This document shows, piece by piece, positions 9,283 to 48,564 of a stretch of 57,391 bases of DNA (the stretch's first letter is position 1; every line of letters starts with the position of its first letter). Source of the stretch: a bacterium (GTDB taxonomy: Bacteria > Patescibacteriota > Minisyncoccia > UBA6257 > GWB1-50-10); contig JAKAHO010000001.1 of assembly GCA_021814835.1 (NCBI GenBank), positions 2,225 to 59,615 on the forward strand, written 5' to 3'. The position numbers and the translations under genes were made by a program. The notes beneath the pieces are model-generated. The model was not told the DNA's origin, did no database searches, and saw only the letters and a list, made by a program, of their open reading frames with translations.

Positions 9283-9319
9283 ACCCCATCATTCTACTCT
9301 TCACGACTCTTAGAAACAA

Positions 9320-31828: not shown

Positions 31829-31845
31829 ATTATACATGCTATACT
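31829..31845. promoter_or_regulatory. divergent -10 boxes: TATAAT (minus, 31834..31829) and TGcTATACT (plus, 31837-31845)
   Basis: The minus-strand box is 9 nt before dnaX ATG 31819. The plus-strand box is 7 nt before ATG 31853. Confidence 0.5.
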
Positions 31846-31971
31846 AGAACAAATGAAGCGTGCGCAGGTATCGTCTCCCTACGGGAGATGTCCCGCAGGG
31901 ACACACTTGCCATCATTCTCGGCTTCGTTTTTTGGCGGACACCGACCAGCACGACTGACATTACGAATAGT

Positions 31972-32430: not shown

Positions 32431-32444
32431 TCGCCTCAAACGGG

Positions 32445-32624
32445 ATGAAACCCGTTAGAGATTAACCAGTGATGTTTTACACGTACGTATTGCAAAACAA
32501 AAATAAACGTCTCTACACAGGGAAACGCTTTAACAATGGCAAGAGAAAAATTTTTAAAGTCGGGACTAGGCAAACGCTATATCAACAATAGATTAAAGCG
32601 TTTCCTATCTCTAACGGGATGAAA
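32445..32624 (+). mobile_element. start-codon-docked hairpin element E1 (180 bp, largest copy, carries GIY-YIG remnant)
   Basis: ATGAAA-CCCGTTAGAGAT ... ATCTCTAACGGG-ATGAAA, a 12-bp perfect stem. The right-hand ATG (32619) is the start codon of the downstream ORF. Confidence 0.75.
32472..32591 (+). pseudogene. decayed GIY-YIG nuclease ORF (39 codons) inside E1
   Basis: MFYTYVLQNKNKRLYTGKRFNNGKRKIF.. . FYTYVL-x8-LYTG matches the GIY..YIG spacing of small GIY-YIG nucleases. The rest of the domain is missing. Confidence 0.55.
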
Positions 32625-34125: not shown

Positions 34126-34911
34126 ATGGCCCACTACGAACTTCGCCTCGAATATTTTCAGGGACCGATGGACAAACTCCTCGAGCTTATCGAGGAGAAA
34201 AAACTCGAGGTCTCGCGGCTCAGCTTGGCGGAAGTAACCGACAGTTTTCTTAATTACTTAGACCAATTTAAGGTTGCGCTTGAGGCGGAGCAGGGCGAAG
34301 ACTCGCCGCTGTTTAACGCGCCCCCGGAACTCCTCGCGGACTTTTTAGTGGTTGCCTCGCGTCTCTTGCTCATCAAATCAAAGTCACTGCTCCCGTCGCT
34401 CGCGCTCTCAACGGAAGAAGAATCGGAAATACACGACCTTGAGCACCGCCTGAAGCTCTATCAGGAACTGAAAAAAACGCAGGAGCACGTCCGTACGTTC
34501 TGGGGAGAAACGCCGAAAATGTATGCGCGTGAATTTATGTCCGCGCACGAACCGCTCTTCTATCCGCCCTCAAACGCGACTCCCGCAACACTGCACGACG
34601 TCGCAATGAAAATGGCGGGAGATTTGGCACAGCTTTTCAAGCCGAAAGCTACCGTCAAAAACCAGATAGTAAACCTGCGCGCAAAGATTCAGGAAATTGC
34701 CGACCGTATTATTTCCTCTCCCACCACGTTCTCAAACCTTCACGGCGGAAAGGGAACGAGGAGCGACATTGTGGTGCTCTTCCTTGCGGTGCTCCACCTC
34801 ATCAAGCAACAGCTCGCGGACGTAGAGCAAACGGGTCATTTTGGAGAAATGACGATTGCGAAATCGAAGCCCGCCGAATACAATGAGAGACAAGGAAATG
34901 AATCCCGTTAG
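34126..34911 (+). CDS. scpA: segregation and condensation protein A
   Basis: FQGPMDKLLELIEEKKLEVSRLSLAEVTDSFL. Adjacent to scpB. The last codons and the TAG stop lie inside element E3. Confidence 0.85.
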   Translation: MAHYELRLEYFQGPMDKLLELIEEKKLEVSRLSLAEVTDSFLNYLDQFKVALEAEQGEDSPLFNAPPELLADFLVVASRLLLIKSKSLLPSLALSTEEESEIHDLEHRLKLYQELKKTQEHVRTFWGETPKMYAREFMSAHEPLFYPPSNATPATLHDVAMKMAGDLAQLFKPKATVKNQIVNLRAKIQEIADRIISSPTTFSNLHGGKGTRSDIVVLFLAVLHLIKQQLADVEQTGHFGEMTIAKSKPAEYNERQGNESR

Positions 34912-35001
34912 AGTTTTACAAACATAAAATACTAACAATTCTTGATATAAATATGGCCGTGAAAAATGAAAAAAATAATTGTAAAACTCTAACGGGATGA
35001 A
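34898..35001 (+). mobile_element. start-codon-docked hairpin element E3 (104 bp)
   Basis: ATGA-ATCCCGTTAGAGTTTTACAA ... TTGTAAAACTCTAACGGGAT-GAA, a 20-bp perfect stem. The right-hand ATG (34997) is the scpB start codon. Confidence 0.8.
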
Positions 35002-35608
35002 CATTTTTGCGCAAATTGAAGCATTACTCTTCTACTTCGGAGAGGCAATAGACATTAAAAAAGTGGCGGAATTATTGCATATTTCTCAGGAAGAATGCGA
35101 TAAGGCCGTCGGCGAGTGGGCGACCGCGCTCGCAAATGACCCCGCACGGGGAATAACCGTACTCCGTAAGGAAAATAAGGTTCAGCTCGTCACAAAAACA
35201 GAACTCAAATCAATCGGCGAGTCGATTGTGAAAGACGAGTTCCGCGAACAATTGACGCCCGCAGCCCTTGAAACGCTCTCGCTCATTGCGTACCTCGGGC
35301 CCGTTCCGCGCGCGACCATAGACTACGTCCGCGGCGTGAACTCAAGCTTCACGCTCCGCGCGCTCGTAATGCGCGGACTTGTAGAACGATGCGACGAAAA
35401 AGGACTTTCATTTCAATACCGTGTCACCGAAATGTTTATGAAACATATGGGGCTTGCATCGCTCGCTGAGCTTCCCGAACACAATAAGTACCGTGAAATT
35501 CTACGTGAGTTTGAAGCGCAACTGCACGCGACGAACACCCCTGCAGTTCCTGCGACTCCCGCAGTTGAAGCGCCCCCGACTGAGATAAATCCCGAAGAAC
35601 CGGCATAA
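34997..35608 (+). CDS. scpB: segregation and condensation protein B
   Basis: IEALLFYFGEAIDIKKVAELL, LTPAALETLSLIAYLGPVPRATIDYVRGVNS. Confidence 0.85.
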   Translation: MNIFAQIEALLFYFGEAIDIKKVAELLHISQEECDKAVGEWATALANDPARGITVLRKENKVQLVTKTELKSIGESIVKDEFREQLTPAALETLSLIAYLGPVPRATIDYVRGVNSSFTLRALVMRGLVERCDEKGLSFQYRVTEMFMKHMGLASLAELPEHNKYREILREFEAQLHATNTPAVPATPAVEAPPTEINPEEPA

Positions 35609-40297: not shown

Positions 40298-40400
40298 ATG
40301 AATCCCGTGAGAGTTTTGGAAACATAAATATACGAAAAACAAAAATATTTTAAAGGTTTGATAAACGAAAATGATAATTGTAAAACTCTAACGGGATGAA
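40298..40400 (+). mobile_element. start-codon-docked hairpin element E4 (103 bp)
   Basis: ATGA-ATCCCGTGAGAGTTTTGGAA ... TTGTAAAACTCTAACGGGAT-GAA, a 20-position stem with 2 mismatches and 1 G-T pair. The right-hand ATG (40396) is the murG start codon. Confidence 0.8.
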
Positions 40401-41520
40401 TATTCGCATTGCATTAGCGGGAGGGGGAACAGGCGGACACTTATATCCGCTGCTTGCGGTTGCGGACGCATTGCGAGCAGTCGCAAAAAACGACGTGCGC
40501 ATTTCATATTTCGGCCCTGAGCACGCGCTTATCAACGAGTTTGAAGCACGCGATATAAAAATCTACGGCATAGCATCGAGCAAATTACGGCGGTATGCAT
40601 CAGTTGAAAACGTTCTCGATTTTCCGAAATTTATCTGGAGTATTTTTCAAGCGCTCGCAAAACTTTATACAGAGATGCCCAACGTGGTCTTCTCAAAGGG
40701 CGGTCCGGGCGCGCTTCCCGTTGTTCTCGCCGCACGCTGGTATATGATTCCCATCGTAATACACGAGTCCGATGCGGTGCCGGGTCTTACAAACACCATC
40801 TCATCAAAATATGCAGCGCGTATTCTTCTTGCGTTTAAAGAAGCTGAAAACTTTTTCCCGAAAGGAAAAACGCGTGTAGTGGGCAATCCCGTCCGTGCGA
40901 TGTTTACGTCGCGCGTAAGCGACCAAAAACAAGCAAAGACAAGCCTTCAATTCGACCCCGAAAAACCTCTCGCGGTTATGCTCGGAGGCTCTCAGGGCTC
41001 GCAGAGGGTCAATACGTTCGTACTCGACAACCTCGACCAATTTCTGCCCGCGTTTCAGATTGCGCATCAGACAGGCTTCGACAATTTCGTTATTGCACGC
41101 GCCCAAGCTGCGTCTATGACGCAACGGATGGATCCGATACTTCAAAATCAGTACAAGCCATACGGATACCTCGCCGCCGATCAGATGAAGACGCTTTTTG
41201 ACGCCGCAGACATCATCATCTCCCGCGCAGGCTCGGGCGCAATATTCGAAATAGCCGCGACTGGGAAGCCCGCGATACTTATCCCATTAAGCGACGCGGC
41301 GCAGGACCACCAGAGAGCAAACGCATATGCGTATGCGGCGACAGGAGCGGCATTCGTCATTGAAGAGGCGAACTTTACCGCAAACCTCGTACTCACGAAG
41401 ATTGGCACTATTTTGAAGGACGCCAGCGCGCTCGAGAGGGTGCGTACCGCCGCTCAGAACTTCTTTAAGCCGAACGCCGCCCATGACATCGCTCTTGAGG
41501 TCTTAAGCGCGGTAAAATAG
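40396..41520 (+). CDS. murG: UDP-N-acetylglucosamine--N-acetylmuramyl-(pentapeptide) pyrophosphoryl-undecaprenol GlcNAc transferase
   Basis: LAGGGTGGHLYPLLAVA, GGSQGS, SRAGSGAIFEIAATGKPAILIP. Confidence 0.9.
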   Translation: MNIRIALAGGGTGGHLYPLLAVADALRAVAKNDVRISYFGPEHALINEFEARDIKIYGIASSKLRRYASVENVLDFPKFIWSIFQALAKLYTEMPNVVFSKGGPGALPVVLAARWYMIPIVIHESDAVPGLTNTISSKYAARILLAFKEAENFFPKGKTRVVGNPVRAMFTSRVSDQKQAKTSLQFDPEKPLAVMLGGSQGSQRVNTFVLDNLDQFLPAFQIAHQTGFDNFVIARAQAASMTQRMDPILQNQYKPYGYLAADQMKTLFDAADIIISRAGSGAIFEIAATGKPAILIPLSDAAQDHQRANAYAYAATGAAFVIEEANFTANLVLTKIGTILKDASALERVRTAAQNFFKPNAAHDIALEVLSAVK

Positions 41521-47407: not shown

Positions 47408-47510
47408 ATGAATCCCGTTAGAGTTTTTATAAGCACGACATATTAACAACTAAAAAAAGAAAAAAGTGATAATTAAAAAAATAATAATTGTAAAACTCTA
47501 ACGGGATGAA
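47408..47510 (+). mobile_element. start-codon-docked hairpin element E5 (103 bp)
   Basis: ATGA-ATCCCGTTAGAGTTTT ... AAAACTCTAACGGGAT-GAA, a 16-bp perfect stem. The right-hand ATG (47506) is the pilC start codon. Confidence 0.8.
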
Positions 47511-48564
47511 CAAGCTCTTTCTCAACATTTCAACGCAGGAACAGATAATTTTCTCCAAACATCTCGCGATGATGATAAAGGCAGGAATGTCTATTTTGGA
47601 CAGCCTGAAAATGTTGAAAAAGCAGGCGCGCTCGCGCTCGATGGTAAAAATTCTCGATTCTCTGATGACGGAGGTATCAAACGGCCAGTTCCTTTCGGCG
47701 GCGCTTGAAAAGTTCCGTAATATATTCGGCGACTTCGCCATCAACATCATCCGCGTCGGCGAGAACAGCGGCGTGCTATACGAAAACCTGAACTATCTTG
47801 CACTTGAACTGAACAAGAGCCTCGAGCTCCGCAAAAAAATAGTCGGCGCGCTTATCTACCCCGTAATCATTGTGCTCGTCACCTTCAGTATCGCGGGCGT
47901 ACTCACCATTTATATTTTTCCCAAAATAACGCCCGTGTTCAAAAGCTTGAACATTCCCCTGCCGATGACGACGCAAATTCTTATGGGCGTCAGTGATTTT
48001 ATGGCGGTGAACGGCGTATATCTCTTTGACGGCCTCGTAGTGTTTATTATCGCCTTCTGGCTTCTCCTTAAAGTGAAATCGGTACGCTATGTGTGGGACA
48101 AAAGTCTTTTCTACGTTCCCATTTTGGGAACGATGGTAGTGAACTACAACGTTTCAAATTTTTGCAGAACATTCGGCTTACTGTTGAAGAGCGACATCAA
48201 AGTCGTCGAAGCAATCTCTATTACCGCAGACACGACCGCAAACCTTGTCTATAAAAAAGAACTGAAAGAGATCGCGGTCGCGATTACGAAAGGCGAGGAA
48301 ATTTCTGTGCACCTTGAACGGCGTTCCCGCATCTTTCCGGGTATGGTGTCGCAGATGGTCGCAGTCGGAGAAAATACAGGCAACCTCAGCGAAAACCTTG
48401 TCTACCTTTCCGAATTTTACGAAAAAGAAGTTGATGACGCAGCAAAGAACCTTTCCACTATTCTCGAGCCCGTCCTTATGGTCTTTATGGGTATCGTCGT
48501 CGGATTTATTGCCATCTCCGTCGTTACCCCGATATATCAAGTCTCACAGGGGCTGAACCGGTAA
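47506..48564 (+). CDS. pilC: type IV pilus platform protein PilC/GspF
   Basis: Two T2SSF-type repeats and 3 TM helices. Follows pilB. Confidence 0.9.
   Translation: MNKLFLNISTQEQIIFSKHLAMMIKAGMSILDSLKMLKKQARSRSMVKILDSLMTEVSNGQFLSAALEKFRNIFGDFAINIIRVGENSGVLYENLNYLALELNKSLELRKKIVGALIYPVIIVLVTFSIAGVLTIYIFPKITPVFKSLNIPLPMTTQILMGVSDFMAVNGVYLFDGLVVFIIAFWLLLKVKSVRYVWDKSLFYVPILGTMVVNYNVSNFCRTFGLLLKSDIKVVEAISITADTTANLVYKKELKEIAVAITKGEEISVHLERRSRIFPGMVSQMVAVGENTGNLSENLVYLSEFYEKEVDDAAKNLSTILEPVLMVFMGIVVGFIAISVVTPIYQVSQGLNR

Follow-up and report, generated by a model that had tools for sequence, protein, structure and literature searches.

Correia elements are reported to be bound and cleaved by RNase III (PMC2649163), and those of Neisseria (CREE) both to be RNase III substrates and to create promoters at their ends (PMC2649163; PMC10969869). 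A second relevant system is Ssn, a stand-alone GIY-YIG protein of about 90–100 amino acids with its own NTS/SRM hairpin repeats on either side (Chenal et al. 2025, PMC11893778); the repeat has multiplied genome-wide, and the authors liken the layout to that of an insertion sequence (PMC11893778). Genomes rich in leaderless genes and poor in Shine-Dalgarno (SD) sequences are likewise an already known class (PMC3160421, PMC6028130).

The hairpin element that acts as a portable promoter is an established Correia concept, which the sequence-only reading extended to a set of related elements in the window, i.e. the whole stretch of 57,391 nucleotides analysed here, where we find it poorly supported. 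We favour another reading, to which we assign a probability of roughly 60%: the interval 34970-35001 is the right end of E3, a derivative of a cassette that docks at start codons, and its host gene would be expressed by read-through transcription with coupled initiation.

Positions 34970-35001 read AAAAAATAATTGTAAAACTCTAACGGG-ATGAA and form the right terminal inverted repeat of E3, a 93-bp element devoid of ORFs whose left arm, ATGAA-TCCCGTTAGAGTTTTACAAAC, begins at 34896 (Table 1). The outer ATG opens a mini-ORF, MNPVRVLQT followed by a stop, and the AATAAT hexamer at the edge of the loop lies 17 nt upstream of the host ATG. The ends of E1, E2, E4 and E5 are identical in kind to those of E3. 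It had been noticed from the letters that E3, E4 and E5 share the right end ATAATTGTAAAACTCTAACGGG-ATG and that E2 has CCATATACTTCTAACGGG-ATG, and both observations held; likewise, the 11-mer CTAACGGGATG, allowing for up to one mismatch, occurs nine times in the window against 0.79 expected. The only tRNA in the window is far from the elements, and a tRNA-derived or tRNA-linked repeat was rejected on this basis. Elements also occur in tandem, sharing the duplicated ATGAA, both in the window at 32437-32447, where a partial right-arm end, CAAACGGGATGAA, precedes E1, and elsewhere in the genome (C4:7403-7630), where two elements lie head to tail downstream of a TATAAT+5 promoter.

Table 1. Elements E1 to E5, with the parts of E3 and its host gene, in positions of the window.
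Feature	Position	Strand	Remarks
E1	32445..32624	+	168-bp decayed derivative of the nuclease-coding form; similar to full-length copies
E2, ATGAA + 100-bp element + ATGAA	32976..33086	+	at the start of ychF, 33082
E3, left copy of the 5-bp target duplication ATGAA	34896..34900	+	outer duplicated start codon
E3, left terminal inverted repeat TCCCGTTAGAGTTTTACAAA	34901..34920	+	contains the scpA stop TAG, 34909-34911
E3, A+T-rich loop	34921..34975	+	AATAAT at 34974-34979, extending into the arm
E3, right terminal inverted repeat ATTGTAAAACTCTAACGGG	34976..34996	+	includes the TGTAAAACT box
scpB, 203 aa	34997..35608	+	Pfam SMC_ScpB; the opening ATGAA is the right copy of the duplication
E4, ATGAA + 92-bp element + ATGAA	40296..40400	+	at the start of murG, ORF 40396-41520
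E5, ATGAA + 92-bp element + ATGAA	47406..47510	+	at the start of ORF 47506-48564

These elements belong to a family with about 30 copies per 575 kb, defined by the core CCCGTTAGAG...CTCTAACGGG, the two ends of which pair over 12–20 bp as terminal inverted repeats. Both flanks carry a 5-bp duplication on the same strand, usually ATGAA, with covarying variants in this genome (ATGCA, ATGAG, ATGGA, ATTGA, ACTTG, ATAAA and GTAGA) and further ones in relatives (ATGAC, ATGTA and ATGGA). Empty sites in congeners hold a single copy of the 5-mer (ATGAA, ATGAC or similar). The E4 site is empty in all seven congeners compared, in which murG abuts or overlaps the upstream stop; the E5 site is empty in the closest congener, G001; and the E3 site is empty in six congeners, the start codon in congener G003 being occupied by a different, composite element. 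No match to the E3/scpB junction was found among JGI metagenome contigs, and identical ScpB proteins turned up in DNA assemblies only.

Two scpB loci merit a separate description. The start of scpB in G003 (L004; C2, ~60900-61020) combines a left arm of the E2 type with a nested element of the E3 type; this start codon was hit independently, or more than once. The empty site in G001 (L002; orthologue of 34896-35010) reads ATGAATCCTGATATTTTTGCA; its first eight nucleotides equal the left junction of the element, ATGAATCC, and it has two codons more than our genome, which may represent an excision footprint or mere chance.

The right ATG opens an ORF of 98–729 amino acids in 24 of the 29 copies of this genome, and docking on start codons is also found in six other genomes and in 48 of 55 metagenome contigs. 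Since gene starts account for only 153 of the 1,696 ATGAA sites in the genome, docking is far from random; besides, every copy has the same orientation with respect to its gene. The full form, with the same ends, is a 275-bp element (C3:2986-3260) containing a single ORF of 94 codons, whose product matches Pfam GIY-YIG (PF01541, E = 1.2e-16, residues 9-75 of 94) and has its nearest solved relatives among UPF0213 proteins (1zg2, E = 7e-10). This ORF begins at the outer ATG, and its stop codon, TGA, shares bases with the host ATG (ATGA). Relatives G002 and G018 have equivalent coding copies, G026 has a decayed one, and a second nuclease-form copy in our genome is interrupted by a contig end. The elements therefore share with MITEs the terminal inverted repeats, the site-varying duplication and a coding relative with the same ends, which is a predicted nuclease and not a known transposase. 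The GIY-YIG cassette was the only coding form found, and our search for an autonomous transposase retrieved no matching pair of ends 0.5–3 kb apart in this genome and five relatives. An IS200/IS605-type element was rejected because of the covarying 5-bp duplication and the terminal inverted repeats. In all, the elements are miniature copies of the 275-bp GIY-YIG cassette that dock at start codons; a literature search, which was not exhaustive, retrieved no description of start-codon-docking MITEs or of MITEs derived from GIY-YIG genes.

Several other arrangements were observed. A subfamily with GC-richer arms (C20:3129-3225 in this genome; L011, L012, L014 and L015 in G003; L020 in G002) is flanked by (A/G)TTGA(C/T), often ATTGACA, and, with only short ORFs downstream, shows no start-codon docking; the consensus -35 sequence is TTGACA. 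Two more small GIY-YIG genes (C18:5170-5379, minus strand; C15:5708-5923, plus strand), one of which adjoins a tRNA-like sequence, have no CCCGTTAGAG arms and may be domesticated or unrelated stand-alone nucleases. Finally, at C15:20102-20115 the duplication ATGCA plus the first T of the element form the palindrome ATGCAT, and on the other strand the left arm reads ...CTAACGGG-ATG, leading to a divergent ORF of 302 amino acids.

The promoter hypothesis rests on the way in which genes of this organism start, which we evaluated in the genome assembly (G000; 575,637 bp in 39 contigs, 95.6% complete) using as native genes a set of 526 non-overlapping ORFs of at least 100 amino acids, covering 84% of the genome. 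The genome is leaderless-rich and SD-poor: G is depleted to 13–17% at positions -14 to -4 of these genes, and SD-like 4-mers precede only 31 of them (6%). Hexamers matching TATAAT at five or more positions, with A-11 and T-7, occur 6–9 nt before the ATG in 102 cases versus about 17 expected from other spacings, thus bearing out the leaderless -10 geometry that had been proposed; those also preceded by TGn number 34 (about 1.6 expected). Native promoters include the type TGGTATACT. Native-grade boxes precede native genes in 22.6% of cases, compared with 1.8% for internal ATGs. From the eight native sites originally listed as examples, seven have a -10 box 6–10 nt before the ATG of an ORF of 107–471 amino acids and the eighth, ATG 31853, opens an ORF of only 67; a TG, supposed to be common to them all, is missing at 9296 and 41543. 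The exception has a perfect TGCTATACT box (31837-31855) 7 nt before its ATG, and its 67 codons overlap, out of frame, an ORF of 180 amino acids starting at 31888; a frameshift, a 35-nt leader or a gene for a small protein could account for it. Immediately before predicted starts, at position -1, T reaches 47%, a strong enrichment, and ATGAA opens 153 of the 526 genes. The arms contain no GGAGG and G is scarce upstream of genes throughout the genome, so SD-led initiation from the arm was rejected.

Set against this background, the right arm as an outward, nearly leaderless promoter, whose own transcript would lack the left arm and leave the AUG unpaired, appears unlikely for the family. The arm hexamers are well placed (AAAACT 8 nt before the host ATG, TAAAAC and TATACT 9 nt), within the native range of 6–10 nt as had been pointed out, and the five E3-like arms have TGn, A-11 and T-7 at a plausible distance; a replacement promoter would also be useful to those genes that the insertion parts from their native one. 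However, AAAACT matches TATAAT at three of six positions only, TAAAAC has no T-7, and TGTAAAACT differs from an extended -10 in the lack of T-12 and T-10 and in having C at -8. Unlike native-grade boxes, the class to which this arm of the ~92–97-bp copies belongs, TGn plus a 3/6 hexamer at spacing 6–9, is not enriched before native genes: it appears eight times versus 3.6 expected, five of the eight being element arms and three native, and shows no sign of use in this genome. A TGn with a hexamer of at least 5/6, 6–9 nt before the ATG, was found neither in E3-E5 nor in E2, whose hexamer is 5/6 but has no TG.

Scoring with a position weight matrix (PWM) agrees with this. The right arms of E3-E5 reach 2.8 bits, which places them at the 97th percentile among 6,458 internal ATGs, with the 75th and 90th percentiles of native scores at 4.2 and 11.2 bits, respectively. 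The PWM was built from 99 native sites, all of them with hexamers of at least 5/6, and is strict by construction; for this reason we added the class-enrichment test described above, which leads to the same conclusion without the PWM. Moreover, left arms read outward mirror the sequence in five of the eleven ~92–97-bp copies, at 1.6–2.6 bits in one tally and at 2.6–2.8 bits antisense, against -2.2 to +2.8 for their right arms, in another; those of E4 and E5 give -2.2/-2.3 bits. E3-E5 thus resemble promoters because their arms are inverted repeats, mirrored on the left, and TGTAAAACT is inverted-repeat sequence weaker than any box class demonstrably used here. The arms of the 112–115-bp subfamily and of the nuclease type, including E1 (CGTTTCCTATCTCTAACGGG, with hexamer CTATCT), contain no -10-like box (-2 to -11 bits), and -10-like hexamers inside elements lack strand bias (81 sense, 83 antisense). 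Likewise, TG before AAAACT is missing from all 41 metagenome right arms, and the TTGTAAAACT arm with TG is limited to five near-identical copies of this genome.

The E2 type differs in several respects. Its TATACT, 9 nt before the ATG, scores 5.2 bits, and its class is overrepresented upstream of native starts (40 versus 13.7 expected); the box is present in the right arm and not in the left one, and arms of this type recur in at least four copies of G003. A sibling, C21:20217, has the same TATACT+9 in its right arm and none in the left. The E2-type arm is one base off the ...TTCTACTTCTAACGGG arm of a 277-bp copy in G008 that has a nuclease-type right arm. The claim that right arms mimic native boxes therefore stands for E2, which is of native grade, and is not borne out for E3-E5; the E2-type arm is the best candidate for a promoter, and the TGTAAAACT arms may have weak activity.

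We then compared the two ATGs across 112 copies (29 from this genome, 42 from six relatives of the same genus, family and order, and 41 with both arms from the 55 metagenome contigs, which are DNA only and many of them from groundwater), scoring native-grade boxes 5–11 nt upstream. The host ATG is preceded by such a box in 2 of 29, 0 of 42 and 0 of 41 copies, respectively, versus 8 of 29, 19 of 42 and 21 of 41 for the outer ATG, where the box lies outside the element (e.g. TGGTAAAAT+6, TGaTATAAT+6, TATACT+7 and TACAAT+6/8). In total, 48 of the 112 outer ATGs and two host ATGs, those of E2 and its sibling, are boxed. This speaks against the idea of the elements as portable promoters, which we consider unsupported for the family and plausible for the E2 type only; instead, native promoters seem to adjoin the outer, left end of the element in those 48 copies. 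Except perhaps in the E2 type, a right-arm promoter would contribute little if anything. One copy, C32:16307, lies downstream of a terminator-like hairpin and has no clear promoter on either side. Another, outside the window (C16:5702-5818), has the duplication GTAGA, without ATG, directly after a perfect TGGTATAGT box, so that the target of insertion may be the region where leaderless promoters start transcription, and not the ATG itself.

Folding of the read-through RNA predicts stems of 15–20 bp (-23.6 to -31.8 kcal/mol; z-scores -3.3 to -6.8), which enclose the A and U of the host AUG, as anticipated in the sequence-only reading. An intrinsic terminator was rejected, since the right arms of E3, E4 and E5 are not followed by a U-run. 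Such stems, together with the rnc gene (RNase III) present in the genome and the precedent of the Correia elements of Neisseria, would suit a processing model in which RNase III cuts the stem and leaves a 5' end a few nucleotides before the AUG, translatable in an SD-poor organism. We regard this model as very unlikely, given that many copies have imperfect or shorter stems and that it would rely on leaderless translation of 5'-monophosphate RNAs in this lineage. A promoter in the loop seems equally improbable: (A/G)ATAAT, which E3, E4, E5, C4:7536 and C29:8382 carry 17 nt upstream of the ATG, would start a transcript with a leader of about 10 nt and no left arm. In each of the five this hexamer matches at five of six positions and has A-11 and T-7, native hexamers have a minor peak at spacing 17 (12 versus about 4.5), and sense hexamers lie 13–27 nt before the ATG in 15 elements as opposed to nine with antisense ones; however, the last difference is not significant and involves related copies, loops with 65–75% A+T are expected to contain such hexamers by chance, and there is neither TGn nor a -35 element.

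The preferred reading, read-through with coupled initiation, starts from what the insertion preserves. Before it, murG and a penicillin-binding protein (PBP) gene lay directly next to the upstream stop or overlapped it, and other hosts had a leaderless promoter; afterwards, these native signals would serve the outer ATG, which keeps either a leaderless -10 box 6–10 nt upstream or the stop of the preceding gene, and the inner copy is still the start of the host gene. The host gene would be transcribed by read-through from the native promoter or the operon, and ribosomes translating the upstream gene, or a short ORF from the outer AUG, would unwind the left arm and so free the host AUG for coupled initiation. 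Termination of scpA inside the left arm of E3 would be an example of such stem opening.

Consistent with translation from the outer ATG, the left arm is open for at least six codons (MNPVR...) in every copy with an outer ATG, and in 18 of 46 miniatures this frame has no stop anywhere in the interior, versus 4.6 expected from composition-preserving shuffles, none of which reached 18. The other two frames are stop-free in seven and six of the 46, and weighting by 80%-identity clusters gives 13.0 for the outer frame against 6.0 and 5.2. The stop-free ORFs terminate either at the overlapping TGA or at a right-arm TAA that precedes the host ATG by 4 nt; the E2 mini-ORF, for example, has 33 codons and ends at the right-arm TAA. 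The copies are not independent, and the open frames may in part have been inherited from the ancestral nuclease ORF. In E3, E4 and E5, the mini-ORFs have only 9–12 codons and stop in the loop, 59–69 nt before the host AUG, so direct termination-reinitiation is not obvious there, and coupling is weakest precisely at 34970-35001.

The depletion of stop codons in the outer frame also bears on another alternative, that the elements have no role in expression, the hairpin lowering translation of the host and copies being merely tolerated wherever the start codon is regenerated. Duplication of the start codon alone would explain the surviving sites in a genome that is ~84% coding, and E3-E5 are recent, being absent from the closest congener. 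Nevertheless, we consider this explanation distinctly unlikely: the hosts include essential genes (murG, scpB and a PBP gene) behind 20-bp stems, and it does not account for the stop-poor frame or for the fixed orientation in all copies.

Taking these observations jointly, we tentatively propose, at somewhat less than even odds, that the mobile family borrows its entire expression apparatus through the target duplication. The element would insert into the opening five nucleotides of a gene, in many cases precisely where a leaderless promoter has its +1; expression of the nuclease or its relic mini-ORF would then depend on the host promoter and the duplicated ATG, with TGA/ATGA or TAA-N4-ATG re-coupling the host. 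Where coupling was lost, some subfamilies (E2 type) might have secondarily evolved TATACT at leaderless distance.

Members of the family occur throughout an order of ultra-small bacteria and are frequent in groundwater metagenomes; they sit precisely between leaderless promoters, or upstream stops, and the start codons of housekeeping genes (scpB, murG, PBP). They offer a natural system to study the initiation of SD-less genes with the AUG buried in a 20-bp stem, as well as the movement and expression of a nuclease-only cassette. There are also consequences for annotation, because gene callers may choose the outer ATG or overlook the mini-ORFs.

The family can be compared with several known systems. 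Leaderless promoters with a sigma-70 extended -10 (TGnTATAAT) are used natively here 6–9 nt before the ATG, a layout that fits the TATACT+9 of E2, whereas TGTAAAACT deviates from it and such a box is not enriched at native starts. CREE are likewise short, multi-copy, bounded by inverted repeats and located directly upstream of genes, and they are co-transcribed as hairpins. They duplicate TA and have no tie to start codons. In our elements there is no TA duplication but one of 5 bp, usually ATGAA, that includes the start codon; the coding form is a GIY-YIG nuclease, and an outward -10 box of native grade is the exception (2 of 112 copies). Free-standing GIY-YIG homing endonuclease genes of the phage Seg type are also small, lie between genes and vary in presence among relatives, although here the 94 residues leave no separate DNA-binding domain, and there are terminal inverted repeats, a 5-bp duplication and many ORF-less miniatures. 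With Ssn, the cassette shares a single-domain GIY-YIG protein of about 100 amino acids (94 here). The SRM motif of Ssn (HGTCWY...RNCYNB) has two matches in the genome versus 2.75 in shuffles, none of them at element ends; unlike in Ssn, the repeats described here are the long-range inverted arms of one element, which duplicates its target and docks on start codons.
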